30,162 nucleotides of DNA. Source: Spirochaetales bacterium (GTDB taxonomy: Bacteria; Spirochaetota; Spirochaetia; Treponematales; UBA12059). This document shows, piece by piece, positions 1 to 12,353 of this stretch (positions are counted from its first letter, which is position 1; each line of letters starts with the position of its first letter). A program made the position numbers and the translations under genes. The notes beneath the pieces were generated by a model. The model had not been told where the DNA came from. It saw only the letters and a program-made list of their open reading frames with translations, and did no database searches. Location of the stretch: NCBI GenBank assembly GCA_016926955.1, contig JAFGNN010000055.1, positions 1-30,162 on the forward strand, given 5' to 3'.

Positions 1-354
1 CGGCGCCGCGACCTGGCCGCCGGCGTAGCCCGACTCGACGTCGACCACGCCCGCCAGTTCCTCGTAGACCGCTTCGAGGCACCAGAAGCAGCCGCCGCCT
101 AAGACGAGTTCCTTGAAGGCAGAAGGGTCGGACACGGTGTACTCCTTTCCGAGGGGAGCCGGGTTCAGGAGGGCGTTGCGGGCGGCGAGGCGCTCCGCGT
201 CGTCCGCCTGAGCGCTCTCCGCGACGGCGGATCCGGGCGCGCAGGCCATGAGCACGGGGACGGCGAGGATGGCCGCAAGGACGGTTCGCAATCGCGATCG
301 CCGAAACTCGCTTCCCGCCGGCGCCGCTCCCTGGCTTTTTATGAGCGAAATCAT
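1..354 (-). CDS. msrA: Peptide methionine sulfoxide reductase MsrA, 3'-truncated by the window edge. It is predicted to be secreted or a lipoprotein (signal peptide with an L-M-A-C lipobox).
   Basis: The minus-strand translation gives ...[26 protein letters not shown]... followed by [28 protein letters not shown], which matches the MsrA GCFWC/SGY.GG active-site signature. The ATG at 354 has no SD; an alternative ATG at 249 would remove the signal peptide. This ORF is not in the supplied track because it runs off the window edge. Confidence 0.65.
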
Positions 355-398
355 AAACTAAAGATAGCTACGCGCGCGCCTTCCGGCAAACGCCTGGC

Positions 399-492
399 GG
401 TGTCACGAAGCTTCCGGGTGGCGCTGCGAACGCAGGTGTCACGAAGCTTCCGGGTGGTGTAGGGGCCCTGGTGTCACGAAGCTTCCGGGTTG
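399..492. repeat. Three tandem direct repeats of ~23 bp (GGTGTCACGAAGCTTCCGGGTGG) with a 35-36 bp period. Each contains GTGtCAC and the palindrome GAAGCTTC. The spacers carry their own small palindromes (CTGCGaaCGCAG, AGGGgCCCT). This is a candidate operator/iteron array.
   Basis: Copies are read directly at 399-421, 435-457 and 470-492 (the third has one insertion). The array lies between divergent msrA and gntR, 70-165 bp upstream of the gntR ATG. Confidence 0.6.
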
Positions 493-525
493 GCGGAAGC
501 GGCCGCACGATTTTTCCCGCGCCTC

Positions 526-554
526 GTTGACAGCTTTTCGCTCCCGGCGTACTA
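526..554 (+). promoter_or_regulatory. Sigma70-type promoter for the gntR operon: TTGACA (526-531), a 17-nt spacer, then TACTAT (549-554). The ATG at 564 is ~3 nt from the predicted TSS, so the mRNA is leaderless.
   Basis: There is a near-consensus -35/-10 with optimal spacing. No SD precedes the ATG at 564. Confidence 0.5.
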
Positions 555-563
555 TTGTACTAG

Positions 564-965
564 ATGAATAGATCAATCGTCGATCAGACGATGGAGTTCC
601 GGCTCGACACCGCGAGCGGCTTGCCGGTCTACCGCCAGATCATCCAGCAGATCGAGCACGCCATACTCTCCGGGCGGCTCGCGCCGGGCGACCGCCTGCC
701 GACGATCCGCGCGCTCTCGGTCGAGCTCAAGGTGAATCCCAACACCATCCAGAAGGCCTACGCCGAGCTCGAGCTGCGGGGCATCGTGTCGACCCAGGTA
801 GGGTCGGGCACCTTCGTCGCGGACGCGCCGATCGACTCGGCGGAGGATGAGCTCTTGAGCAGGATCGAGGAGCGCGTGGGGCGCTTCGTCAAGGATATGG
901 AAGAACTCGGGATCGGGCGCGAGCGCATGGTCGACCTGGTCCGCGACTTCAGGGAGGATCGATGA
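564..965 (+). CDS. GntR-family transcriptional regulator, short YtrA-like subfamily (133 aa).
   Basis: The HTH segment LPTIRALSVELKVNPNTIQKAYAELELRGIVSTQVGSGTFV is typical of the GntR wHTH. The short C-terminal domain resembles YtrA-type regulators, which usually sit in ABC-transporter operons. Its stop overlaps the next gene's start (ATGA at 962-965). Confidence 0.85.
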   Translation: MNRSIVDQTMEFRLDTASGLPVYRQIIQQIEHAILSGRLAPGDRLPTIRALSVELKVNPNTIQKAYAELELRGIVSTQVGSGTFVADAPIDSAEDELLSRIEERVGRFVKDMEELGIGRERMVDLVRDFREDR

Positions 966-2137
966 CGTTTTTCCGGAAGCTGCTGGGCGGCGGCCGCGAG
1001 TCCGCGGGCCGCGGCCCCCTCATCAAGAACGCCGGGCGCCGCCCGAGCACGCGCGACTTCGAGCTCGGCGCGGTGGGATTGGCCCTCGCCGCCCTGCTGG
1101 TCGCATTCTCCGTCGCCGCCCGACTCCTTTCCGGGACGCATCCTTCTCCCCTGGCCTTCGGCGCCCTGCTGGGCGCGCCGATCCTGGCGGCCGCGACGAT
1201 GACGCTCTTCCCGCGCTGGAGCGCGGCGGTCAAATTCGTCCTCCTCGCCCTCGTGGCGAGCGCTGCTTGGGCGTCCCTCGGCGCGGCCGGCGCGGACGCG
1301 GGCCTGGCGCTGGCATTCGCCGCGGTCGGCGCCTTCGTGGCGCCCTCGGTGCAGCGCCTGGCCGAATGGGAACGGGGCATCGTGCTGCGTTTCGGCAAGT
1401 TCCGGCGCGTCCGGGGGCCGGGGCTTTTCGTCCTCTTCCCCGTGGCCGACAAGCTGGCCGAGACGGTGGACCTGCGCATCCGCGTGACGGACTTCTCCGC
1501 CGAGACGACGCTAACGCGCGACTCGGTGACCGTCACGGTGGACGCGCTCTGCTTCTGGCTGGTGTGGGACGCGGAAAAGGCGGTGCTCGAGGTCGAGGAC
1601 TACGAGGAGGCGGTGATCCTCTCGGCCAAGACCGCCCTGCGCGCCGCGGTGAGCAAGCACGACCTCTCGGTCTTCCTCGAGTCGGGCGAGACCATCGAGG
1701 AGCGGATCCGCGCCGAGGTGGACCGCAAGACCACGGACTGGGGCGTGACGGTGCAGCACATCGAGATCACCGACATCCAGATTCCCGAACAGCTGCAGGA
1801 TTCCCTGAGCCGCCTCGCGCAGGCGGAGCGCGAGAAGAAGGGACGCATCCTGCTCGCGGAGGCGGAGATCGAGATAGCCAAGCGCTACGAGGAAGCCGCG
1901 CGCGTCTACGCGGCCAACCCGACGGCGCTGAAGCTCAAGAGCCTCTCCATCCTCAACGAGGGCCTCAAGGCGGGCAACTCGATGATGCTGGTCCCCGACT
2001 CCATCACCGAGGAACTCAAATCGAACGACATTTTCGGCCTCCAGGCGCTCAACGAGCTCCGGAGGGACGAACAGGCATCCGCTGGCAAGGGAACGAAGAA
2101 AGCCGCCCCGGACGGGCGCGGCAAGGCAAGGAGCTGA
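962..2137 (+). CDS. Membrane-anchored SPFH/band-7 (stomatin/prohibitin-like) protein, 391 aa.
   Basis: An N-terminal ~130 aa with several hydrophobic helices is followed by an SPFH core (GIVLRFGKFRRVRGPGLFVLFP...DLRIRVTDFSAETTLTRDSVTVTVDALCFWLV...) and a coiled-coil AQAEREKKGRILLAEAEIEIAKRYEEAARVY. Translation is coupled to gntR. Confidence 0.8.
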   Translation: MTFFRKLLGGGRESAGRGPLIKNAGRRPSTRDFELGAVGLALAALLVAFSVAARLLSGTHPSPLAFGALLGAPILAAATMTLFPRWSAAVKFVLLALVASAAWASLGAAGADAGLALAFAAVGAFVAPSVQRLAEWERGIVLRFGKFRRVRGPGLFVLFPVADKLAETVDLRIRVTDFSAETTLTRDSVTVTVDALCFWLVWDAEKAVLEVEDYEEAVILSAKTALRAAVSKHDLSVFLESGETIEERIRAEVDRKTTDWGVTVQHIEITDIQIPEQLQDSLSRLAQAEREKKGRILLAEAEIEIAKRYEEAARVYAANPTALKLKSLSILNEGLKAGNSMMLVPDSITEELKSNDIFGLQALNELRRDEQASAGKGTKKAAPDGRGKARS

Positions 2138-2139
2138 AC

Positions 2140-2829
2140 ATGGCGATCCTCAAGCTATCGAAGATCCGCAGGATCTACCGCAAGGGCGACAACGAGGTGG
2201 TGGCGCTCTCCGGCCTCGACCTCGAGGTCGAGAAGGGCGAATTCACCGCGGTGGTGGGCCCCTCGGGCTCGGGCAAGACGACCTTGCTCAACATCATCGG
2301 CTGCCTCGACTCTCCCACCTCGGGCGAGGTGGTCTACGACGGCACGCCGCTCAAGGCGCTCGGCGAGAAGGCGCTGGCGGACTACCGGAAACGCCACGTC
2401 AGCTTCGTGTTCCAGTCGTACAACCTGATTCCCGTGCTGACCGTGCGCGAGAACGTCGAACTGCCGCTGGTCATCGAGAAGCGCCTCAAACCCGCCGAGA
2501 TCAAGGCGCGGGCGCTCGAGGTGATCGCGGAAGTAGGGCTCGCCGACAAGGCCGACCGCTTCCCGCGCGAGCTTTCCGGCGGCCAGGAGCAGCGCGTGGC
2601 CATCGCGCGGGCCTTGGTCAAGGAACCCTACGTGATCCTGGCGGACGAACCGACGGCCAACCTCGACTCGCACACCGCCGAGGAGATCGTGGAGCTCATG
2701 CGCAAGGTCAACGCGGAGCGCAAGACCACCTTCATCTTCTCGACGCACGACAAGCTGGTCATGCAGCACGCGCGCCGCGTGGTGACCATACGCGACGGCG
2801 AGCTCGTCTCGGACGAGCGCAAGGAGTAG
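2140..2829 (+). CDS. ABC transporter ATP-binding protein of the LolD/MacB/FtsE type (229 aa).
   Basis: It has Walker A GPSGSGKTT, the signature LSGGQEQRVAIARAL, Walker B ILADEPTANLD and the H-loop FSTHD. The start ATG at 2140 is 2 nt after the SPFH stop. The track's upstream extension to 1267 is an Arg/Gly-rich artefact. Confidence 0.9.
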   Translation: MAILKLSKIRRIYRKGDNEVVALSGLDLEVEKGEFTAVVGPSGSGKTTLLNIIGCLDSPTSGEVVYDGTPLKALGEKALADYRKRHVSFVFQSYNLIPVLTVRENVELPLVIEKRLKPAEIKARALEVIAEVGLADKADRFPRELSGGQEQRVAIARALVKEPYVILADEPTANLDSHTAEEIVELMRKVNAERKTTFIFSTHDKLVMQHARRVVTIRDGELVSDERKE

Positions 2830-2832
2830 GCG

Positions 2833-4092
2833 ATGGGCACCCTCTGGAAGATCGCGTTCCGCAACGTGCTCAGGCACAAGCGGCGCACGGCGATCACGGG
2901 CGTGGTCCTCATGTTCGGGATCGGCGTCTACATCATGTTCGGCTCGATGCTCGCCGGCATGGACCGCATGAGCATCGACTCGATGGTCGACTACTCGACG
3001 GCCTCGGCGAAGGTCACGAGCCCAGGCTACCTCGAGACCATGTCCGGCACGCCGCTCGACTTCGGGCTCGAGAATCCGGCCGCCATCGAGCGGGCGGCGC
3101 TGGCCGCGGGCGCGAGCGGCACCACGCGGCGCACAGCCTTCGTGGGGCAGCTCTCCAACTACGTCGACGCCCTGCCGGTCATGGCTTTCGCCGTCGATCC
3201 GGCGACGGACGGGACGGTGTTCGCGCTGGAGCGCGCGGTCGACGCGGGCGAATGGTTCCCGGGCCGCGAGGCGAACGAGATCGTGCTGGGCAGGAAGCTG
3301 GCGGCCGAGCTCGGGCTTTCGGTCGGCGACTGGGTGGTGCTTTCCGGCCGCACCCGGCCCGGCGCCGAGAACGCCGACGAGTTCGTCGTGGTCGCCACCG
3401 TGGACGCCGCGGACCCGCAGGTATCGAACTCGGGCGCCTACGTGAGCTACGGGGCCGCCGAGGAATTCCTCGAGCTCGACGGGCTCGTCACCGAGCTCGA
3501 CCTGGCCCTGCCGCGCGCGGCCACGCTCGACCGCGCGCTCGACGAGGCGGACGCGCTGGCCGCCGCCCTGCGCGCGGAGTTCCCGGAGCTCTCGACGCGC
3601 TCGGTCAAGGACCAGGCCGCCGACTACCTGGCCATGCGGAACATGAAGAGCAAGTTCAGCTACGTGATGATGCTCGTGGTGCTGCTGATCGGCGGCGTCG
3701 GCATCGTCAACACCATATTGATGGCGGTCTACGCCCGCGTGAAGGAGATCGGCGTGCTTCGCGCCTACGGCATGCTGGGCCGTGACGTGAAGTCGCTCTT
3801 CACCATCGAGGGCGTCATCGTCGGCGCCATCGGCTCGCTGGCCGGCGCCCTGTTCGGCCTCGCGCTCACCTGGTACATGGTGGAGTACGGGATACCGGTC
3901 GGCGTCTTCTTCGCGGACGGCGGCCTCGACATGGGCAACCTGCCCCTGACGGGCAGCATGTACGGCGAATGGAAGCCGCTCGACATCGTCGTCGGCTTCG
4001 TCTTCGGCGTGGTCGTCTCGTTCATCGCGGCGCGGATTCCCGCGCGGCGCGCGGCCCGGCTCGAAGTGACCGACGCCCTGCGCTTCGTGTAA
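2833..4092 (+). CDS. FtsX-family ABC permease, LolC/LolE/MacB-like (419 aa).
   Basis: The N-terminus MGTLWKIAFRNVLRHKRRTAITGVVLMFGIGVYI is a typical FtsX/MacB TM1. A ~230-aa periplasmic domain is followed by a C-terminal three-TM FtsX domain. RBS AAGGAG lies at 2821-2826. Confidence 0.85.
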   Translation: MGTLWKIAFRNVLRHKRRTAITGVVLMFGIGVYIMFGSMLAGMDRMSIDSMVDYSTASAKVTSPGYLETMSGTPLDFGLENPAAIERAALAAGASGTTRRTAFVGQLSNYVDALPVMAFAVDPATDGTVFALERAVDAGEWFPGREANEIVLGRKLAAELGLSVGDWVVLSGRTRPGAENADEFVVVATVDAADPQVSNSGAYVSYGAAEEFLELDGLVTELDLALPRAATLDRALDEADALAAALRAEFPELSTRSVKDQAADYLAMRNMKSKFSYVMMLVVLLIGGVGIVNTILMAVYARVKEIGVLRAYGMLGRDVKSLFTIEGVIVGAIGSLAGALFGLALTWYMVEYGIPVGVFFADGGLDMGNLPLTGSMYGEWKPLDIVVGFVFGVVVSFIAARIPARRAARLEVTDALRFV

Positions 4093-4103
4093 GGGAGGAT
4101 AAG

Positions 4104-5339
4104 GTGCGCATACTCGACATGGCCTTGCGGAACCTGGGGCGGAACCACCGGCGCACGGCGCTGGCGGCGAGCTCCGTGTTCTTTGCCATCATGCTGATAC
4201 TCATCATGAACGGCCTCGTGAACGGCTTCATGGAATCGATGGTCCGCAACTACACCAAGAACGACTCGGGCCACGTGCATATCGCGACCGAGGGCTACCG
4301 CGCCCGCGAGCGCTTCATGCCCGTCGACGAGAACGTCCCGGACTCGACCGCGCTGGCCGCGGCCATCAAGGACCTGGACGGCCTCGAGGGCCGCGTGGAG
4401 ATCGTGGCGGAGCGCATCCGCTTCGGCACCCTGCTCTCTTCCGGACCCGCCACCAAGGCCGCCTTCGGCATGGCCGGCGACCCGGAGCTCGAGACCGAGC
4501 TGGTCATGCTCGACCGGAGCATCGTCGAGGGCCGCTACCTCACGGGCTCGGGCGACGCGGTGCTCGGCGCCGGGCTCGCGGCGGACCTCGGCCTCACGGT
4601 GGGCGACACGCTGAAGGTGGTGACCCAGCGCGCGGACTACGGGATCGGCTTCAAGCGCTTCACCATCGCGGGCATCTTCAAGACCGGCGTCAACACGCTC
4701 GACGGCAACCTCTTCCAGATCGGCCTCGACGACGCGCGCGAGCTCCTGGCCATCGAGGGCGCGCAGCAGCTGCTCGTCATGCTCGACCGTTCGGACTTCG
4801 CGCCGGAGGCGGCGCGGATCATCGAGGCGGCCCTGCCCGGGCTCGGCTTTTCGGGCCTGACGGCGCGACCCTGGCAGCAGGATTCGTTCGGCGGCTTCAT
4901 CACGCTCGTCTCGGGAGTGTACTGGTTCATGTACCTGATCTTCGCCGCGCTCGGCGCCTTCATCATCACCAACGTCATGATGATGGTCGTGCTCGAGCGG
5001 AAGCGCGAGATCGGCATCATGAAGTCGATGGGCATGCCGCGCCTCGAGCTGCTCGGCCTCTTCCTGCTCGAGGGCAGCCTCATCGGGCTCGCGGGCTCCT
5101 TCCTCGGCTCGGCCGTCGGCACCCTGCTCAACTGGGTCTTCTCGAAGATCGGCTTCGACATGACCGACGCGCTGGCCGGCTTCTCGTGGCCGCTCGACAA
5201 CATCATCTACCCGCGGGTCGACCTGCTGCAGGCCCTGCTTTTCGTGGGCCTCGGCACGCTCGTCGCCGCGGCCATGTCGTACCTGCCCTCGCGGAGCGCC
5301 TCGCGCATGGATCCCGTCGAGGCCATCCGCTCGGTGTAG
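4104..5339 (+). CDS. Second FtsX-family ABC permease, LolC/LolE-like (411 aa).
   Basis: A GTG start at 4104 is preceded by GGAGG (4094-4098); an alternative ATG lies at 4119. It has the same architecture as the upstream permease, with C-terminal motif ...ASRMDPVEAIRSV. Confidence 0.85.
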   Translation: MRILDMALRNLGRNHRRTALAASSVFFAIMLILIMNGLVNGFMESMVRNYTKNDSGHVHIATEGYRARERFMPVDENVPDSTALAAAIKDLDGLEGRVEIVAERIRFGTLLSSGPATKAAFGMAGDPELETELVMLDRSIVEGRYLTGSGDAVLGAGLAADLGLTVGDTLKVVTQRADYGIGFKRFTIAGIFKTGVNTLDGNLFQIGLDDARELLAIEGAQQLLVMLDRSDFAPEAARIIEAALPGLGFSGLTARPWQQDSFGGFITLVSGVYWFMYLIFAALGAFIITNVMMMVVLERKREIGIMKSMGMPRLELLGLFLLEGSLIGLAGSFLGSAVGTLLNWVFSKIGFDMTDALAGFSWPLDNIIYPRVDLLQALLFVGLGTLVAAAMSYLPSRSASRMDPVEAIRSV

Positions 5340-5352
5340 TCGACGATACCGA

Positions 5353-5474
5353 GAAACCACGGAGGCACGGAGACACGGAGGGAGGAGGGAGAAAACGGTC
5401 AAGAGCTTCCGATCACTCTTGAGCGAGAATTCCATCCTCCCTCTTTTCTCCCGATCTCCTTGCCTCCGTGGTTC
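5353..5474. repeat. Imperfect palindromic intergenic element of ~120 nt. The left terminus is GAAACCACGGAGGCACGGAG and the right terminus CCTCCGTGGTTC. It has a purine-rich arm (GGAGGGAGGAGGGAGAAAA), a pyrimidine-rich arm (TCCTCCCTCTTTTCTCCC) and a central TCAAGAG/CTCTTGA. It lies inside the operon between permease 2 and the LolA_like gene.
   Basis: The inverted repeats were read directly. The same terminal 19-mer recurs at 24364-24380 and 24398-24416, and inverted at 24522-24539. Confidence 0.65.
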
Positions 5475-5493
5475 TATTCTTCAAGGAGTTCAT

Positions 5494-6234
5494 ATGAAGC
5501 GTATCATTTTTACGGTGTTGGCGGCGGTGGCGGGGTTCGCGGCGTTCGCGCAAGCGGCGCCGACCGCGGCGGAAATATTGGCGAAGGTGGACGAGAACGA
5601 GAATTTCTCGTCCATCGAGTACGAGGGCCGCATGGAGCTCACGCTCGGCGGCAAGACCCGCGTCAAGACGATGAAGGCCGTGGCCGTCGGCGCGGACAAG
5701 GCGTACATCGAGTTCACCAACCCCGAGGACCGGGGCGTGCGCTACCTCAAGCTCGGCGACGAGCTCTGGATGTACTTCCCGAAGGAGGACGATACGGTCA
5801 AGATCTCCGGCCACCTGCTCCGCGAGGGCATGATGGGCTCGGACGTGTCGTACGAGGAAGCGCTCGAATCCGACAGCCTCGCCGATATTTACGACGCGGT
5901 CGTCAAGGGCCGCGAGGACTACGAGGGCAGGCCCGTCTGGGTGCTCGAACTCACGGCGAAGAAGAGCTCGGCCAGCTACGCGCGGCAGATCCTCCGCGTC
6001 GACGCCGAGCGCTTCGTGACGCTCTCGGCGGACCTGTACGCCAAGAGCGGCAAGTTGCTGAAGGAATCGCGCACCCTCGAAGTCAGGCTCATCGGATTGC
6101 GCTGGTACCCGGTCAAGGTCGAGCTCTCCGACAAGCTCCGCAAGGATTCCCGCACGAGCTTCGAGCTCGTGTCCATCAAGCTGGACGTCGCCGTGGATCC
6201 GAAGCGCTTCACGCTCTCGGAGCTGGGGAAATGA
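5494..6234 (+). CDS. LolA_like (PF17131-type) outer-membrane lipoprotein-sorting protein with a signal peptide (246 aa).
   Basis: It has the signal peptide MKRIIFTVLAAVAGFAAFAQA. The family-typical segment KLGDELWMYFPKEDDTVKISGHLLREGMMGSDVSYEEA matches the conserved LW.YLP...R(I/V)...MGSDF.YED core. RBS AAGGAG is at 5481-5486, and the ATG at 5494 lies inside the longer track ORF. Confidence 0.75.
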   Translation: MKRIIFTVLAAVAGFAAFAQAAPTAAEILAKVDENENFSSIEYEGRMELTLGGKTRVKTMKAVAVGADKAYIEFTNPEDRGVRYLKLGDELWMYFPKEDDTVKISGHLLREGMMGSDVSYEEALESDSLADIYDAVVKGREDYEGRPVWVLELTAKKSSASYARQILRVDAERFVTLSADLYAKSGKLLKESRTLEVRLIGLRWYPVKVELSDKLRKDSRTSFELVSIKLDVAVDPKRFTLSELGK

Positions 6235-7367
6235 AAGGCAACTCGGTCTCCGTCGCGGTTCTCGCGGCGGTCTTCGTCGTCGGCACCTTCCAGCTCGCTG
6301 CGCAATCCGGAGCGCCGGAGTTCGGCGGCGTTTTCTCCCGGAGCGACGCGGCCCTGTACGTTGCCGCCGGGGAAGTCGACTCAGGCGACTTCTCGTGGAC
6401 TGCGGCAAGCGCGCTCGAGCTCGCTCTCCGCGCGGGGGGCGATAGCGCGCGGGCCGAGGCCGCGTTCACGGCGACCGTGCTGAACGGCTCGGCGGCGGAG
6501 GCGATGATCGCGCTCGCGACCTCGATGTCGCTGCCGTCGGGTTCTCCTTTCGCCTCAGGCGGGGCGCTCGTCGTCCCGCTCGCGTCCGATCCGGCCTCCG
6601 TCCTGCTCCTCGAGCTCCGCTCGCTCCAGCTCAGGCTCGACCTGGGCGAGGCGCGGCTCCGCGCGGGCAGGCAGGTGGTCAATTTCGGGCGGGGCCAAGC
6701 CTTCAGCCCGGCGGACGTTTTCGCGCGGCGCGACCTTTCCGGGCTTTCCCCCGCGCGCGCGCCGGTGGACGCGCTCAGGCTTTCGGGCCCCTTCGGGCAG
6801 TTCGGCGGCTGGGACCTCGTGGCCGCGCCGCGCGCCGAAGCGGAGGACGGGACCTACGCGGCGCGCGCCTGGGCCTGGGCCTTCGGGGTGGATGGCGGCC
6901 TCATCGCGGGCCGCGACGGCGGACGCGGAGACTGGCTTGCCGCGGCGGACGTCCAGTTCGACCTCGGCGCCACCTTCCGCGGCGAGGTCCTGCTGCGGTA
7001 TTCAGATTCGGGGGACGCGCGCGTTTCGGCCATGGCCGGCCTCGACTGGTCGCTCGGCGACTTGCTCATGGGGGCCGAGTACTACCGGAACGGCGACGGC
7101 GCGGCGGGCGCGGTGCCGCTTTCGGGGGCTCCGGGCGCGGCTTCGGAACACTACCTTTTCGCGACGCTCGGCTGGCAAGCGGGCGATTTCGCGTCACTCT
7201 CCGCCAGCGCGCTCGCCGAGCTCGACGAAGGGCTCTGGGCGCCAGCCCTGGCCCTCACGGTAGACGCGACGCAGAGCGCCGACCTGGTCGTCGCCCTGCG
7301 GGGCCTCGCCGATTCTGGCGGCGTCGTATCGGCTGCCCTCGCGGCGACGCTCGAGCTTTCGTTCTGA
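6231..7367 (+). CDS. Putative outer-membrane beta-barrel protein (378 aa) with a signal peptide and a C-terminal Phe.
   Basis: The start overlaps the upstream stop (ATGA at 6231-6234). It has the signal MKGNSVSVAVLAAVFVVGTFQLAAQS, Gly/Ala/Ser-rich alternating segments and a terminal ...ATLELSF (an OMP-type C-terminal aromatic). No family was recognised. Confidence 0.55.
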   Translation: MKGNSVSVAVLAAVFVVGTFQLAAQSGAPEFGGVFSRSDAALYVAAGEVDSGDFSWTAASALELALRAGGDSARAEAAFTATVLNGSAAEAMIALATSMSLPSGSPFASGGALVVPLASDPASVLLLELRSLQLRLDLGEARLRAGRQVVNFGRGQAFSPADVFARRDLSGLSPARAPVDALRLSGPFGQFGGWDLVAAPRAEAEDGTYAARAWAWAFGVDGGLIAGRDGGRGDWLAAADVQFDLGATFRGEVLLRYSDSGDARVSAMAGLDWSLGDLLMGAEYYRNGDGAAGAVPLSGAPGAASEHYLFATLGWQAGDFASLSASALAELDEGLWAPALALTVDATQSADLVVALRGLADSGGVVSAALAATLELSF

Positions 7368-7448
7368 TCCGGCGCTGAAGGGCGGATGGCGCCGGCCTTG
7401 CCGCCACCCGCCTCGCGCCGGGCCGGGAAAGCGCGCTCTTCCCACCGC

Positions 7449-7856
7449 TCAGAGTCCGGAGTCCGGGCTCCATAGTCCCGCGACGAACTCGTCCACGGCG
7501 CCTTCGGGGCGGAACTCCGCCGCGAAGACCTCGGCCACCCAGGTCGACGCCTCGGGCAGTATGGAAAGCGCCGCCTCGAATCCGGCGTCGAGGGCACGCC
7601 GCCGCGCGGCGAGCGCGGAAACGCCGAGCGCGCCCGCCGCGACGACGGCGAGGGCGGCGGCGGCGAGCGCTCGGGTGCCGGGCATACGGCGAATCCGTAC
7701 CTCGCGCCGCCGCGACGCGTCCGCGGCCAGTTCGAGCGCCCCCGCTTCGGACGCGCGCGGCGTCCCTTCGCCCGCCAGGTTTCCGACGGCCGCCCGCAGC
7801 GCGGCGCCGAGCGCGGCGTCCCGTCCGTCCCCCAGAGCGATGCGTGTCCGTTTCAT
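7449..7856 (-). CDS. Putative single-pass membrane anti-sigma factor (135 aa), translationally coupled to the ECF sigma gene.
   Basis: The ATG at 7856-7854 overlaps the sigma gene's TGA (ATGA). It has one hydrophobic helix (ALAAAALAVVAAGALGVSALAA) and no zinc-binding anti-sigma motif. The assignment is positional. Confidence 0.45.
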   Translation of the reverse strand: MKRTRIALGDGRDAALGAALRAAVGNLAGEGTPRASEAGALELAADASRRREVRIRRMPGTRALAAAALAVVAAGALGVSALAARRRALDAGFEAALSILPEASTWVAEVFAAEFRPEGAVDEFVAGLWSPDSGL

Positions 7857-8476
7857 GCGTCCCCCCATTCCGCGAGCGCCTGTCCGCGGAGCTTCGCGCG
7901 GGCGCGCGCGAGCTTGCTCTTCACCGTGCCTTCGCGGAGGCCGAACGCGCGCGCCAGGTCGCCGAGCGAGGCGCCTTCCGCGTCGCGCAGGTAGACGAGC
8001 GAGCGCTCAGGTTCCGGCAAGCCCGCCAGCAGCGCCGCGACGCGCTCGCTCGCCTCGCGCCGCTCGAGCGCGGCCGCGGGATCCCCGCCGGAACCGGGCG
8101 GCACCCCGACGCCGGGGGCAGATGCGTCCCCGGCGAAGCGCGCCGCGCGCGCGGCCATGGCGCCGCGCCTGGCGGCCTTCCGGAGCTCGTCGAGGGCCGC
8201 CCGCCGCGCCACCGCGGCCATGAAGGTGGCGACGGCGGAGTCGCCCCGGAAGCGAGCGAGCGCGCCCACGAGGCGGACGCAGGCTTCCTGGACGGCGTCG
8301 TCCACCAGGAGCGGATCCCGGCGGGCGGCCGCCCCGAGCGCGACGAAGGCCGCGCGGCGGAGCAGGCCTTCGTGCCGCCCGACGAGGCACGCGAACGCCC
8401 GGGCGTCGCGCCCCTCCGCCCAGGCGGCCGCGAGCGCGGCGTCGTCGGCTGCCGGATCCGCCGCTTCTTCGCGCAC
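7853..8476 (-). CDS. RNA polymerase ECF-type sigma-70 factor (207 aa).
   Basis: The region-2-like segment is DDAVQEACVRLVGALARFRGDSAVATFMAAVARRAALDELRK and the region-4 HTH is LPEPERSLVYLRDAEGASLGDLARAFGLREGTVKSKLARARAKLR. Its GTG start overlaps the upstream gene's stop (TAGTG). Confidence 0.85.
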   Translation of the reverse strand: MREEAADPAADDAALAAAWAEGRDARAFACLVGRHEGLLRRAAFVALGAAARRDPLLVDDAVQEACVRLVGALARFRGDSAVATFMAAVARRAALDELRKAARRGAMAARAARFAGDASAPGVGVPPGSGGDPAAALERREASERVAALLAGLPEPERSLVYLRDAEGASLGDLARAFGLREGTVKSKLARARAKLRGQALAEWGDA

Positions 8477-9021
8477 TACTGGATGAGCCTCAGCACACCG
8501 GCGAGCACCCTGAGCTTTTCCGCATCGCCCGCGCGCTCGGCGAGCTCGCGTAGGTCGCCCGCCTTCGAGATGGCCGCCATGCCCCGCGCCAGGCGGTTCA
8601 GGACGCCCCAGCGCTCGGTCCCGAGCAGGGCGCGGATGGCCAGGCCCCGCTCGATCTGTACCATGCGGATGCGGTACTCGGCCTCGAGGCTGGCGCGCAC
8701 GGTCTTCTCGACCGCGGCCCGGTCCGGCTCGTCCTCGAGAAGGAGCCGCGCCAGGCGGGCCTGCAGTTCCCGGATTTCCGCGCGCGCGCGCTCGAGCTCC
8801 CTGGCGCCCTTGCCCGAAAGCTCCGCGATACGCGCGGCCTCCTCGTCGGTGAGCGCGAGCAGGCGGAAATCGCGGCGCGCCTCGGCGATGCCGTAGCCCG
8901 GGTCCCGGTACTGCGCCGGCACGGCGGCGGGTCCCGGCCCCTGGGCCGCGAGCAGGGCCGGCGCCGCGAGCAACACGGCGGCGACCATCATTCCCTTCAT
9001 ATTCTTTCCGTTCACATTCAT
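8476..9021 (-). CDS. Periplasmic Spy/CpxP-like (LTXXQ-type) helical protein, first gene of the ECF operon (~181 aa).
   Basis: It has the signal peptide MNVNGKNMKGMMVAAVLLAAPALLAAQ. Helical repeats LTDEEAARIAELSGKGARELERARAEIRELQARL resemble LTXXQ periplasmic chaperone/sensor motifs. GGAGG sits 9 nt upstream of the ATG at 9021; the alternative ATG at 9030 has no spacer. Confidence 0.45.
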   Translation of the reverse strand: MNVNGKNMKGMMVAAVLLAAPALLAAQGPGPAAVPAQYRDPGYGIAEARRDFRLLALTDEEAARIAELSGKGARELERARAEIRELQARLARLLLEDEPDRAAVEKTVRASLEAEYRIRMVQIERGLAIRALLGTERWGVLNRLARGMAAISKAGDLRELAERAGDAEKLRVLAGVLRLIQ

Positions 9022-9139
9022 GCCGTTCATCCTCCGCCCATTGGTCGCCGCGGACGCGCCCCGGGTTCCCTCAAAAAGCGCATATCCCCCACGCATTGTA
9101 GCGCGACGGCGGCGCGTCTGGAAATTCACGGGCCACCTG

Positions 9140-9148
9140 TGCCATAAT
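9140..9148 (+). promoter_or_regulatory. Candidate extended -10 element (TGcCATAAT) for ileS. It is followed by a GC hairpin (9155-9178) in the ~45-nt leader.
   Basis: This was read directly and no clear -35 was found. No T-box consensus is present. Confidence 0.3.
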
Positions 9149-9200
9149 CGCCCGAAGCGCGCCCCGCCCGGGGCGCTGTCCCGCATCCGGAGGAAGCGCC

Positions 9201-12200
9201 GTGTTCAAGCCCGTGGATCCCAAAGTGAACTTCCCGCAGATGGAAGAGGCCCTCGTCGAATTCTGGGAGCGCGAGCGCATCTTCAAGCGGAGCATCGAGC
9301 AGCGCGAGGGCAAGGACGAGTTCGTCTTCTACGACGGCCCTCCCTTCGCCACGGGCCTGCCCCACTTCGGCCACTTCGTCCCCGGCACCATCAAGGACAT
9401 CGTCCCGCGCTACAAGGCCATGAAGGGCTACAAGGTCGAACGCCGCTTCGGCTGGGACTGCCACGGCCTCCCGGTCGAGTACGAGATGGAGAAGGAGCTC
9501 GGCATCTCCGGCAAGCGCCAGATCGAGGACTTCGGCGTCGCGAAGTTCAACGAGTCCTGCCGCTCCATCGTACTCCGCTACACCAAGGAGTGGCGGCGCA
9601 TCATGACCCGCGCCGGCCGCTGGGTCGATTTCGACAACGACTACAAGACCATGGACCCCGACTACATGGAGTCCATCTGGTGGGTGGTCAAGGCGCTGTG
9701 GGACAAGGGCCTCGTGTACGAGGGCCACTACATCCTGCCCTACTGCCCGCGCTGCTCGACCGTGCTCTCGAACCACGAGCTCCAGCTCGGCGGCTACCGC
9801 GACGTCCACGACCCCGCCATCACCGTGCGCTTCAAGGTGAAGGCCGCCCCCCCGAAATTCCCGCTCGCGGACCTGGCCGACGGGCACACCTACGTGCTGG
9901 CCTGGACCACCACGCCCTGGACCCTGCCCTCCAATCTCGGCCTGACCGTCGGACCCGACATCGACTACGTCCTGGTCAAGGACGGGACCGAGCGCTACCT
10001 CCTCGCGGAGTCGCGGCTCGGCGCGTACTACAAGGAAACCGACACGCTCGACTTCGCCTGGAAGGGCAAGGGCTCCGAGCTTTCGATGCTCGAGTACGAA
10101 CCCCTCTTCGACTTCTTCGCCGACGCGCGCGAACAGGGCGCCTTCCGCGTCCGGACCGGCGACTTCGTCACCACCGAGGACGGCACCGGCGTCGTGCACA
10201 CCGCGCCCGGCTTCGGCGAGGACGACTACCGCGCGCTCAAGGACACGGGCATCCCCGTCATCGCGCCGCTCGACGGCGAGTGCCAGTTCACCGACGAGGT
10301 GCCCGACTGGAAGGGCTTGTTCGTCAAGGACGCCGACAAGCCGATCATGGAAAAGCTCAAGGTCGAGGGCAAGCTCGTCAGGCGCGAGCAGATCCTCCAC
10401 GCCTACCCGCACTGCTGGCGCTGCGGCAGCCCCCTCATCTACCGCGCCATCTCGAGCTGGTTCGTCAAGATCGACCCCGTGAAACCCATGATGCTGGACG
10501 CGAACTCGCGCGTGCGCTGGACGCCCGAGCACATCCGCGACGGCCGCTTCGGCAAGTGGCTCGAGAACGCGCGCGACTGGGCCATCAGCCGCAACCGCTA
10601 CTGGGGCAATCCGCTGCCCATCTGGAAGTGCGACTCCTGCGCCGAGACCGTGTGCGTCGGCAGCCGCGACGAGCTCGAGAAGCGCTCCGGCACCCGCCCC
10701 GACGACCTCCACAAGCACTTCGTCGACGAGATCACCTGGAAATGCTCCTGCGGCGGGACCATGAAGCGCATTCCCGAGGTGCTGGACTGCTGGTTCGAGT
10801 CCGGGTCCATGCCCTACGCCCAGGTGCACTACCCCTTCGAGAACAAGAAGCACTTCGAGGAGCACTTCCCCTCCGACTTCATCTGCGAAGGCCTCGACCA
10901 GACCCGCGGCTGGTTCTACACCCTGACCATCCTGGCGGCGGCCCTCTTCGACCGGCCGGCCTTCAAGGCCTGCGTGGTCAACGGCCTCGTGCTGGCCTCC
11001 GACGGCAAGAAGATGTCGAAGAGCCTCCGCAACTACACCGACCCCATGGTCGTCATGAACGAGTTCGGCGCCGACGCGCTCAGGCTCTTCCTCATGCGCT
11101 CCGCCGTGACGCGGGCCGACGACCTCTGCTACTCCGACGAGGGCGTGCGCGAGGTGCTCAAGGGCATCATCCTGCCCGTCTGGAACGCGTACAGCTTCTT
11201 CGTCACCTACGCCAACATCGACAGGGCCGAGCCCGGCGAGGCGCCGACCGACGCCGCGAACCCGCTCGACCGCTGGATACTCTCCACCTGCGAAGCCATG
11301 GTCCAGGCGACCGGCGCGGCGCTCGAAGCCTACGACATGCAGGCCGCCATCGAGCCCATCGTCGACTACATCGACGCGCTCAACAACTGGTACATCCGCC
11401 GCTCGCGGCGCCGTTTCTGGCGTTCGGAGAACGACGGCGACAAGGCCGAGGCCTACGCCACCCTCTACCGCGTGCTCCGCCGCCTGGCCGAGACCGCGGC
11501 GCCCATCATGCCCTTCGTCAGCGAGGAGATCTGGCGCAACCTGCGCCGCCCCGACGAGGCCGAATCCGTCCACCTCCGCGACTACCCCGAGTACGACGCG
11601 CGCTACCGCGACGAGGCGCTCGAAGCCAAGATGGCCATCGCGCGCAAGGCGGTCGCCATGGGCCGCGCGCTCCGCGCCCAGTACGAGCTGAAGGCGCGCC
11701 AACCACTCGCGCGCGCGATCCTGGTCACCCGGGATGCCAAGGAGCGCGCGGTGCTCCGCGAGATGGAAGAGCTGCTCCGCGACGAGCTCAACGTCAAGGA
11801 GCTGGCGTTCCGCGAGAACGAGGAGGACCTCGTCTCGTACTCCGCGAAGGCCAACTTCCGCACGCTCGGCAAGGAGCTCGGCAAGGACATGAAGGAGGCG
11901 GCCGCCCTCATCGAGAAGCTCGACCACCGCGCCGCCGCCACCCTGGTCGAAGGCGGTCGGCTCGAACTCACGGTGGCCGGCCGTCCCGTCGAGCTCGACC
12001 TTTCCAAGGTCGAGATCCGGCGGCAGGAAAAGGAAGGGCTCCACGTCCTCAACGAGGGCACGCTGACCGTCGGCCTCGACGTCGAGATAACGCAGGAGCT
12101 GCTCGACGAGGGCTACGCGCGCGACCTGGTGCGCGGCCTCCAGAACCTGCGCAAGGAAGCCGGCCTCGAGGTTTCAGACCGCGTTCGTATCGGCCTCTTC

Positions 12201-12353
12201 GGCCCCGCCGCGCTCAAGGCCGCCTGGGAGCGCTTCGCCGACTACGTCGCCGGCGAGACCCTGGCCGTCGCCGTGGAATGGAAGGAAGCAAGCGGCATGA
12301 CGGAGATCGAAGCCGGCGAAATCGCCTGGCTCGCCGCCGTCGAAAAGGCCTGA
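9201..12353 (+). CDS. ileS: Isoleucine--tRNA ligase, type 2 (eukaryote-like bacterial form), 1050 aa.
   Basis: It has the HIGH motif PHFGHFVPG, the KMSKS motif KKMSKSLRNY, an editing domain and a type-2 C-terminal extension. The GTG start at 9201 has GGAGG at 9189-9193. Confidence 0.95.
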   Translation: MFKPVDPKVNFPQMEEALVEFWERERIFKRSIEQREGKDEFVFYDGPPFATGLPHFGHFVPGTIKDIVPRYKAMKGYKVERRFGWDCHGLPVEYEMEKELGISGKRQIEDFGVAKFNESCRSIVLRYTKEWRRIMTRAGRWVDFDNDYKTMDPDYMESIWWVVKALWDKGLVYEGHYILPYCPRCSTVLSNHELQLGGYRDVHDPAITVRFKVKAAPPKFPLADLADGHTYVLAWTTTPWTLPSNLGLTVGPDIDYVLVKDGTERYLLAESRLGAYYKETDTLDFAWKGKGSELSMLEYEPLFDFFADAREQGAFRVRTGDFVTTEDGTGVVHTAPGFGEDDYRALKDTGIPVIAPLDGECQFTDEVPDWKGLFVKDADKPIMEKLKVEGKLVRREQILHAYPHCWRCGSPLIYRAISSWFVKIDPVKPMMLDANSRVRWTPEHIRDGRFGKWLENARDWAISRNRYWGNPLPIWKCDSCAETVCVGSRDELEKRSGTRPDDLHKHFVDEITWKCSCGGTMKRIPEVLDCWFESGSMPYAQVHYPFENKKHFEEHFPSDFICEGLDQTRGWFYTLTILAAALFDRPAFKACVVNGLVLASDGKKMSKSLRNYTDPMVVMNEFGADALRLFLMRSAVTRADDLCYSDEGVREVLKGIILPVWNAYSFFVTYANIDRAEPGEAPTDAANPLDRWILSTCEAMVQATGAALEAYDMQAAIEPIVDYIDALNNWYIRRSRRRFWRSENDGDKAEAYATLYRVLRRLAETAAPIMPFVSEEIWRNLRRPDEAESVHLRDYPEYDARYRDEALEAKMAIARKAVAMGRALRAQYELKARQPLARAILVTRDAKERAVLREMEELLRDELNVKELAFRENEEDLVSYSAKANFRTLGKELGKDMKEAAALIEKLDHRAAATLVEGGRLELTVAGRPVELDLSKVEIRRQEKEGLHVLNEGTLTVGLDVEITQELLDEGYARDLVRGLQNLRKEAGLEVSDRVRIGLFGPAALKAAWERFADYVAGETLAVAVEWKEASGMTEIEAGEIAWLAAVEKA

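Follow-up and report, generated by a model that had tools for sequence, protein, structure and literature searches.

A seven-gene operon at positions 564-7367 of a 30,162-nucleotide (nt) stretch of DNA (contig JAFGNN010000055.1 of GenBank assembly GCA_016926955.1, hereafter the window) encodes a GntR-type regulator, an SPFH protein of the slipin type, an ATP-binding cassette (ABC) ATPase, two FtsX-like permeases, a soluble LolA-like carrier and a putative outer-membrane beta-barrel (Table 1). I consider it slightly better than an even bet that this operon is a dedicated, repressor-controlled, inducible and non-housekeeping exporter, which moves hydrophobic or lipid-like cargo across the envelope and is distinct from Lol. 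The window belongs to a metagenome-assembled Spirochaetales genome (locus tags JXA15_*), and the module formed by the last five genes is more widespread than an earlier note, made from the letters of this stretch alone, could know. The module is an ABC-driven variation on known export systems that combine a carrier with a barrel, not a new kind of system.

An operon with a conserved five-gene core

The seven co-directional genes listed in the earlier note were all recovered as open reading frames on the forward strand, and for each there is either a family assignment or a set of conserved homologues. Its description of the junctions needs one amendment. Stop and start codons overlap as ATGA at 962 (gntR/SPFH) and 6231 (carrier/barrel), and three further junctions measure 2, 3 and 11 nt, as claimed, but the sixth, between permease B and the carrier gene, spans 154 nt (5340-5493), or 79 nt if an unlikely TTG start at 5419 were used. 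Permease B is taken to begin at the GTG at 4104, which is preceded by GAGGA; an alternative ATG at 4119 would give a protein of 406 amino acids (aa).

These seven genes are a real operon. A locus scan with the carrier alignment, restricted to one genome per species, yielded 80 loci and is biased to close spirochaete relatives: judged by record title, nearly all are Spirochaetota, one is from Fibrobacteres and a few are called just "bacterium". The core order ATPase, permease A, permease B, carrier, barrel was complete and on one strand in every locus with enough flanking sequence (53/53). Because the same five genes keep the same order and strand throughout these related loci, chance adjacency of unrelated genes is ruled out, as it is by the recurrence of the genes across phyla in shuffled orders.

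The more distant cases are varied in layout. A metagenome-assembled genome of Thermodesulfobacteriota has the order carrier, permease, permease, ATPase, barrel, and that order recurs on a metagenomic contig, where a TetR regulator precedes the genes. In Persicobacter (Bacteroidota) the order is barrel, ATPase, permease, permease, carrier. An Escherichia coli IncK2/Z plasmid (NZ_CP060058.1, ~11.9-23.1 kb; loci L095/L096) carries an ATPase, one permease, a carrier and, with a match of 25.5 bits to the barrel profile, a "hypothetical protein" of 399 aa. Judged from sequence, the five-part module recurs in at least four bacterial phyla. That the five proteins stay together across phyla while their gene order changes is strong evidence of joint function. 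The module may be defined by an ATPase, FtsX/MacB_PCD permeases (one or two), a PF17131 carrier and a barrel for which there is no Pfam model.

The plasmid genes are embedded among genes for short-chain dehydrogenase/reductase, acyl carrier protein (ACP), ketosynthase-like, PfkB and crotonase proteins, and the whole appears to be a lipid- or polyketide-like biosynthesis-and-export island. Since the module sits in an ACP/ketosynthase cluster, its cargo in this case is probably lipid-like. The plasmid host is an E. coli isolate from a healthy human gut. A tblastn search of a plasmid collection for the Borrelia BBJ cluster, with the carrier and the barrel as queries, matched nothing from Borrelia, and the barrel query had no match of any kind. 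In the literature I found no functional study of this operon type.

Table 1. Positions of the operon genes, its regulatory elements and the flanking genes in the window.
Feature	Position	Strand	Details
Secreted MsrA-like methionine sulfoxide reductase	1-351	-	upstream flank; GGGCFWC motif; PF01625 in syntenic L008
Promoter and putative operator	527..563	+	-35 TTGACA 527-532; -10 TACTAT 550-555; GntR box 549-563
GntR repressor (putative)	564-965	+	133 aa; winged helix-turn-helix and ~50-aa tail; PF00392
Slipin-type SPFH/Band_7 protein	962-2137	+	391 aa; PF01145
ABC ATPase, LolD/MacB/DevA/FtsE clade	2140-2829	+	229 aa; PF00005
Permease A, FtsX/MacB_PCD	2833-4092	+	419 aa; PF12704 and PF02687
Permease B, FtsX/MacB_PCD	4104-5339	+	411 aa from GTG; PF12704 and PF02687
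Long imperfect GC-rich RNA hairpin	5352..5475	+	within the 154-nt gap 5340-5493
PF17131 LolA_like carrier	5494-6234	+	246 aa
Putative outer-membrane beta-barrel	6231-7367	+	378 aa; signal peptide; C-terminal ...LELSF
Single-transmembrane protein, possible anti-sigma	7449-7868	-	139 aa
ECF sigma factor	7853-8476	-	
Secreted Metal_resist/CpxP-like protein	8476-9186	-	PF13801, 30.8 bits
ileS	9201-12353		downstream of operon

Transporter, carrier and barrel

The ATPase matches PF00005 at 126 bits. Its score against the LolD model TIGR02211 (231.9 bits) does not reach the cut-off of 307.75, and the MacB nucleotide-binding domain (220 bits) and DevA (212 bits) follow near that score, with FtsE also a top match. 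Both permeases exceed the Pfam cut-offs for PF12704 and PF02687 (in permease A, MacB_PCD covers residues 19-240 and FtsX 278-411), and hydropathy gives each of them four hydrophobic segments, arranged as a first transmembrane (TM) helix, a periplasmic loop of ~235 aa and TM2-4. The transporter therefore has the architecture of the type VII ABC superfamily, which includes MacB, LolCDE and FtsEX. The characterised transporters of this class are all known for removing or expelling their substrates at the periplasmic side, and no importer is known among them; the fold, as seen in the structures of MacB and LolCDE, has no transmembrane path for a substrate. Permeases A and B are paralogues (25% identity, BLASTP 7e-21) and so presumably form a heterodimer.

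The earlier note called the permeases LolC/E-like and proposed comparing their periplasmic domains with the Hook-bearing domain of LolC/E and with MacB. They do prove nearer to LolC, LolE and LolF than to MacB, but they are not orthologues of the Lol proteins. The best PDB matches by sequence are LolF (3e-13) and LolE (9e-11) for permease A, and permease B matches LolF (2e-18) and LolC (5e-10). The periplasmic domain aligns to LolF, LolC and LolE at E values of 1e-18 to 1e-8, whereas MacB aligned over the C-terminal TM part only (~1e-6). YtrF (9o9x), an FtsX/MacB_PCD permease, is also among the PDB matches. Against the LolC/E equivalog model TIGR02212, however, permease A scores 103.0 and permease B 100.9 bits, where the cut-off is 362.45. 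At the Hook site permease B has QRADYGIGFKR, which in a HMMER alignment of low identity is 6 residues shorter than PSASQFTPMGRIPSQR of LolC and 5 shorter than the LolF equivalent. In the loci of Gracilinema, Breznakiella and Sediminispirochaeta (L089-L091, e.g. L090 9868-11613) the first permease has 504-581 aa and its MacB_PCD match is weak or absent; the periplasmic domain of permease A thus varies much more than that of permease B.

The carrier reaches 150 bits against PF17131 (cut-off 30), the LolA_like family, renamed TP_0789-like in newer Pfam releases. It is predicted to be secreted and soluble, with a signal peptide of the signal peptidase I type and no lipobox Cys, and its confident structural model has the LolA-superfamily fold. 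The nearest structures are 4z48, of the DUF1329 family, and Porphyromonas gingivalis LolA3, with 3bk5 and 3buu also listed. The match to the DUF1329 family itself (PF07044) stays just under threshold, at 20.8 bits (E 2.7e-4) against a cut-off of 23.1. Across many spirochaetes, and across orders, the carrier is 55-63% identical, and its most conserved motif, ISGHLLKEGMMGSD.SYEDALES at residues 104-125, lies on the predicted lid helices. The beta2-beta3 loop has no Arg in the model (GAD at 66-68), and the protein is in this respect not a LolA of the PF03548 type. By analogy with its structural neighbours, the carrier would have a hydrophobic cavity. LolA3 of P. gingivalis (PDB 9tp6) has a hydrophobic groove shielded by helices, lacks both the LolA arginine and the LolB leucine, and binds LolB very weakly, without pairing (PMC13103446), and lolA3 of Flavobacterium johnsoniae is dispensable for gliding and type IX secretion (PMC11885536). 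Treponema pallidum TP0790, numbered beside the Pfam namesake TP0789, has been modelled as an AcrB-like resistance-nodulation-division (RND) pump (PMC8407342).

The earlier note's putative beta-barrel ending in Phe gains support from the predicted structure, in which the 378 residues, including a signal peptide, form about 18 strands. The predicted fold matches 18-strand channels (porin/AlgE-like; OprD/Occ, chitoporin) and not Omp85 insertases or TolC. A conserved motif, GRQxVNxGxGxxFSPxDxF, occupies residues 146-164. A word-indexed search found 8 relatives, and an exhaustive profile search found 1749 cluster representatives (50% identity) at E<=1e-3, 451 of them at E<=1e-10. Those to which a source gives a name are all "hypothetical" except one "opacity protein-like surface antigen". 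Pfam has no match for the window barrel, and none of the relatives reaches a Pfam threshold; the commonest weak match among them is DUF1302 (3/55 and 10/73; best E 2.3e-5). The carrier and barrel genes overlap by 4 nt in the window. Of eight other spirochaete loci for which genes were called, seven share this overlap (L002, L006, L007, L008, L089, L090, L091), and in the remaining one, L004, the gap is 8 nt. Given the sub-threshold DUF1329 match, the nearest structure from the DUF1329 family and the weak DUF1302 matches, the carrier and barrel are best regarded as small, distant relatives of the DUF1329/DUF1302 pair, a matter of remote homology and not of membership, as the PF07044 and PF06980 thresholds are missed and the operon has no RND or BNR gene. 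The parts that the earlier note listed for a route from inner to outer membrane thus appear to be present as a conserved unit: a type VII ABC transporter, a soluble carrier of the LolA superfamily and a predicted outer-membrane barrel.

Promoter, regulatory heads and hairpin

The first gene encodes a GntR protein with a PF00392 match of 68.8 bits at residues 23-85. No second domain (FCD, UTRA or aminotransferase) was found in the Pfam and NCBIfam scan, and the best full-length NCBIfam matches, the Rv1152 family and PmtR, are both under cut-off. With a winged helix, a short tail, no effector domain and a place at the head of an ABC operon, the protein is of the YtrA type, as the earlier note had it. 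A promoter scan found a sigma-70-like promoter (17-nt spacer, 10/12 matches) that ends 8 nt 5' of the gntR ATG. A putative GntR box, (G)TACTATTGTACTAG, has as its last base the one before that ATG. Because box and promoter end so close to the start codon, the mRNA is probably leaderless or nearly so. Boxes of the form ATTGTACTAG lie between the -35 element and the gntR ATG in all 12 other gntR-headed loci shown (L011, L021, L025, L061, L063, L075, L083, L085, L087, L089, L090, L091), as direct repeats ~20 nt apart in close relatives and as a palindrome, TTGTACTA-N6-TAGTACAA, in distant loci. In several of these the -10 element ends 7-8 nt before the ATG, which likewise implies a leaderless gntR mRNA. 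It is plausible that the boxes are a YtrA-type operator on a leaderless promoter. Just upstream of this promoter, at 399-492, the window repeats a 23-nt unit, GGTGTCACGAAGCTTCCGGGTGG, three times in the same direction at a spacing of 35-36 nt. This repeat does not occur in the 160-nt upstream regions of the other gntR-headed loci and could be a binding-site array or a lineage-specific repeat.

The second gene encodes an SPFH protein that matches PF01145 at 116.9 bits (cut-off 23.6). A basic N-terminus leads into four predicted TM helices (35-130), which are followed by the SPFH domain (135-302) and a coiled, Lys-rich tail. Homologues at 60-96% identity carry the source names slipin or SPFH, and the Band_7 match together with the N-terminal membrane anchor places the protein in the SPFH/slipin group. 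NfeD is a frequent partner of slipins; there is no such gene here, and the partner is the GntR/ABC operon. The basic N-terminus and a further basic stretch after TM4 predict, from hydropathy and the positive-inside rule, that the SPFH domain faces the cytoplasm. Any scaffolding of the transporter, which the earlier note had suggested for this protein, would therefore be on the side of the ATPase and the repressor and not round the periplasmic domains.

SPFH homologues at 61-65% identity occur in three cultured spirochaetes, Gracilinema caldarium and Breznakiella homolactica (Treponematales) and Sediminispirochaeta bajacaliforniensis (Spirochaetales), in the same seven-gene operon and in unrelated neighbourhoods. 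On this sequence evidence the GntR+SPFH head is kept across two spirochaete orders and is old. It is also one of several. Among the 52 loci with at least 6.2 kb of upstream sequence, six have the GntR+SPFH head (one of them with both heads in tandem), 41 have an HTH_34 winged-helix regulator, accompanied in 37 by a multi-TM protein of ~228 aa, and five have neither, with a TetR regulator instead in two of the five; TetR heads were seen in L058, L070 and L093. The earlier note regarded the SPFH protein and the repressor as unusual additions, and this has to be revised: they are one of at least three alternative heads, yet one whose SPFH protein is well kept. The synteny of SPFH, ABC and LolA-like genes that it proposed to assess across genomes likewise extends to the five-gene core and not, in most loci, to the head.

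In the alternative head (L002, L004, L007 and 34 more; e.g. L007 5676-6679) the multi-TM protein comes first and the HTH_34 regulator follows. The ~228-aa protein has an N-terminal amphipathic segment and no Pfam match. In L025 and L061 the HTH_34 and multi-TM pair stands in tandem with GntR+SPFH. Homology between the four-TM protein of this head and the four-TM N-terminus of the slipin was considered and rejected (hhalign probability 0.3%). The cytoplasmic position predicted for the SPFH domain, the translational coupling of the slipin to a repressor that lacks a ligand domain, and the replacement of both by another pair of membrane protein and small regulator together suggest a regulatory or sensing role for the slipin; caging of the transporter is at least as possible. 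In either case the pairing of a YtrA-type repressor that has no ligand domain with a four-TM slipin offers a tractable case of how SPFH proteins relate to transporters or to transcriptional control.

The long junction between permease B and the carrier gene is largely filled by an RNA hairpin with a minimum free energy of -72.5 kcal/mol (z = -5.8), and 0/200 shuffled sequences fold as well. On its 3' side are a U-rich segment, UUCUAUUCUU, and then the Shine-Dalgarno sequence of the carrier gene, AAGGAG. In the two closest relatives, L006 and L009, the arms of the hairpin are kept, with changes on both sides. Most other relatives lack the hairpin and have a gap of 1-38 nt at this junction. An Rfam search of bases 1-9300 returned nothing at E<=0.1, and the hairpin is without a match. 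It may be an attenuator, a processing site or an mRNA stabiliser that sets the ratio of the transporter to the carrier and barrel.

Three genes at 7449-9186, on the reverse strand, converge on the 3' end of the operon. They encode an extracytoplasmic function (ECF) sigma factor, a possible anti-sigma protein and a CpxP-like protein. All or part of this trio is kept beside the operon in L006, L008, L013 and L022, and it may be an envelope-stress module linked to the exporter. The neighbourhood of ileS is kept in many Treponematales loci, and after ileS come genes for an Fe-dependent repressor, CstA and an ArsA-like ATPase, as in L006 and L008.

Possible functions and comparison with known systems

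If the operon is a trans-envelope exporter, it might work as follows. The ATPase and the two paralogous four-TM permeases would extract cargo from the outer face of the inner membrane by ATP-driven movement of the periplasmic domains and pass it to the soluble carrier of LolA3/DUF1329 type, which would shield it across the periplasm. The carrier would then dock on the translationally coupled 18-strand barrel, from which the cargo would enter or pass the outer membrane. The YtrA-type GntR would repress the operon from the ATTGTACTAG boxes, which overlap the -10 element and the start of the probably leaderless mRNA, and the slipin, with its four-TM anchor and cytoplasmic SPFH domain, would either cage and organise the transporter or couple the state of the membrane to the repressor. 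In this scheme I infer the transport direction from the transporter class; the hand-over steps, the chemistry of the cargo, what the slipin does and that GntR represses are inferred as well.

That the system would not be a housekeeping one is suggested by its heads, which differ by lineage: GntR and slipin, a small winged-helix regulator with a membrane protein, or TetR. The dispensability of F. johnsoniae lolA3 (PMC11885536) and the strong induction of a TetR-headed LolA_like operon of P. gingivalis when hemin is limiting (PMC10470040) point the same way. A canonical Lol pathway (LolCDE/LolDF and LolA) is reported to be conserved in Spirochaetes (PMC11784454), and the set described here fails every Lol equivalog cut-off, so it is most likely an extra system, accessory to a canonical Lol set for which the basis is that literature. 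The same failed scores and the variable repressor heads disfavour the operon as the housekeeping Lol system itself. Several points weigh against the exporter of lipid-like cargo. The spirochaete operons have no biosynthetic neighbours that point to a cargo; the export direction is taken from the class of transporter alone; the barrel model is of medium confidence (pLDDT 71.5, from 8 sequences), with the most conserved motif in a low-confidence segment; and the hairpin could mean that in this lineage expression of the carrier and barrel genes departs from that of the transporter genes.

An alternative is efflux of the MacB kind, in which drugs, peptides or exogenous hydrophobic toxins (such as fatty acids, bile-like compounds, terpenes or lipopeptides) are expelled and the LolA-like protein and barrel replace MacA and TolC. 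Such a pump would have the MacB_PCD/FtsX architecture; repressors of the YtrA and TetR types, here represented by a GntR protein with PmtR among its best matches and by the TetR heads of L058, L070 and L093, are typical of such pumps; the ECF sigma/anti-sigma/CpxP-like module adjoins the operon; and the related AmeABCD has been linked to monoterpene tolerance and growth (PMC6394551). This explanation largely overlaps with that of a lipid exporter, differing in the origin of the cargo alone, but I regard it as unlikely, as there is no membrane-fusion adaptor and no TolC-like duct, and a soluble carrier implies shuttling and not a continuous channel. The 55-63% identity of the carrier across orders suggests one defined ligand and not broad specificity, and the E. 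coli plasmid version lies within a biosynthetic cluster. An improbable alternative is a second, specialised Lol-like pathway, in which some of the lipoproteins would be extracted by the ABC transporter, carried by the LolA-like protein and inserted, or flipped to the surface, by the barrel. Spirochaetes have many surface lipoproteins, the permeases have LolF, LolE and LolC as their closest solved relatives by sequence (periplasmic domain included), the top NCBIfam match of the ATPase is LolD, the carrier is in the LolA superfamily, and the authors who described the similar Borrelia cluster BBJ23-29 proposed lipoprotein export for it (PMC13078400). Yet the equivalog scores fall far short (103 and 101 bits against 362, and 232 against 308), the loop at the Hook position appears shortened, and the carrier lacks the beta2-beta3 Arg. 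Its resemblance is to LolA3, a protein that forms no pair with LolB (PMC13103446) and is dispensable for lipoprotein-dependent gliding and for type IX secretion (PMC11885536). The barrel is predicted to be a porin/AlgE-like channel and not of the Omp85 or Slam type, and a small lipid cargo accords better with the TetR and GntR heads and with a homologous module that lies in a fatty-acid/polyketide-like cluster.

The structural matches of the barrel include substrate-specific uptake channels (OprD/Occ, chitoporin), and this raises the converse arrangement, in which a hydrophobic nutrient enters through an OprD-like barrel, is bound by the LolA-like protein as a periplasmic binding protein and is inserted into the inner membrane by the ABC transporter. 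Pseudomonas putida with mutations in the DUF1302/DUF1329 pair shows poor growth on fatty esters (bioRxiv 10.1101/2020.07.04.188060). In many HTH_34-headed loci and in L008, a gene for a FadD-like acyl-CoA synthetase is also found 7-9 kb upstream, at a site that in the present case is beyond the start of the window, but a divergently oriented gene separates it from the operon, of which it is not a part. No importer is known among type VII ABC transporters, the class has no transmembrane substrate path, and the ATPase falls in the LolD/MacB/DevA exporter clade; uptake is accordingly very improbable.

A bolder version of the exporter, which I would call a long shot, is that the slipin forms a cage on the cytoplasmic face round the ABC extractor and that the five-part module is a general ABC-driven "carrier plus barrel" lipid export system of diderms, parallel to Lol, Lpt and Mla. 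If true, this would provide a general route of lipid export in diderm bacteria that lack lipopolysaccharide (LPS). For spirochaetes, the operon gives a concrete and testable candidate for moving lipids or hydrophobic molecules to an LPS-free outer membrane, and it is present in cultivable species. A review describes the route by which spirochaete glycolipids reach the outer membrane or cell surface as unknown (PMC11784454).

Compared with known systems, the operon resembles LolCDE-LolA(-LolB) in a presumed heterodimer of four-TM permeases whose periplasmic domains are of the MacB type, in its LolD-like ATPase and in a soluble LolA-superfamily carrier. It differs in failing the equivalog models by wide margins, in having a LolA3/PF17131 carrier and not a PF03548 LolA, in a Hook-position loop 5-6 residues shorter, in an integral barrel in place of the lipoprotein LolB, and in a putative repressor control whose regulatory head varies by lineage. 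As for MacAB-TolC, no MacA/HlyD adaptor and no OEP family match was found among the operon proteins in Pfam and NCBIfam. As for the LolCDE-like or MacB-like machine of the earlier note, the proteins are neither Lol orthologues, on their equivalog scores and LolA3-type carrier, nor a MacAB-TolC system, which would have an adaptor and TolC. The short GntR protein without an effector domain, first in an ABC operon, recalls Bacillus subtilis ytrABCDEF and Staphylococcus aureus pmtR-pmtABCD, but these belong to monoderm hosts and come without a periplasmic carrier, barrel or slipin. The Borrelia burgdorferi cluster BBJ23-BBJ29 (lp38), described computationally, has a MacB-like type VII permease, an ATPase, a LolA-like protein and an outer-membrane barrel, and its authors propose that a non-polar ligand is carried from the inner to the outer membrane (PMC13078400). 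It has an Omp85-family barrel, tetratricopeptide repeat chaperones and a single permease, in all of which the present operon differs.

A further parallel is with clusters of DUF1302, DUF1329, BNR and RND (HAE3-MMPL) genes, including AmeABCD of Castellaniella defragrans, which likewise combine a LolA-superfamily protein with an adjacent outer-membrane barrel and an inner-membrane exporter. These four components are cofit in several Proteobacteria, where export of envelope components has been proposed (bioRxiv 10.1101/072470). AmeABCD is tied to growth on and tolerance of monoterpenes, and an insertion in ameB lowered growth on monoterpenes (PMC6394551); in P. putida, the fitness defects of mutants in the pair are those on fatty esters mentioned above (bioRxiv 10.1101/2020.07.04.188060). 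An operon of P. gingivalis with the order TetR, MMPL, LolA_like ("lipoprotein-sorting protein") and hypothetical protein is among the genes most induced by hemin limitation (PMC10470040), and there the exporter is of the MMPL/RND type where here it is an ABC transporter. The present operon differs from the clusters of Proteobacteria in its type VII ABC motor, which takes the place of a proton-driven RND exporter, in having no BNR/Ycf48-like protein, and in the smaller size of its carrier and barrel (246 aa for the carrier, where AmeB has ~450, and 378 aa for the barrel, where AmeA has ~600). The remote homology ties the module to systems that are genetically supported and mechanistically obscure, and suggests a general principle, by which a shuttle of the LolA superfamily and a porin-like barrel would serve different inner-membrane motors. 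The best-supported placement of the operon is therefore as an ABC-driven cousin of the DUF1329/DUF1302/RND systems, with a putative DUF1302-like channel.

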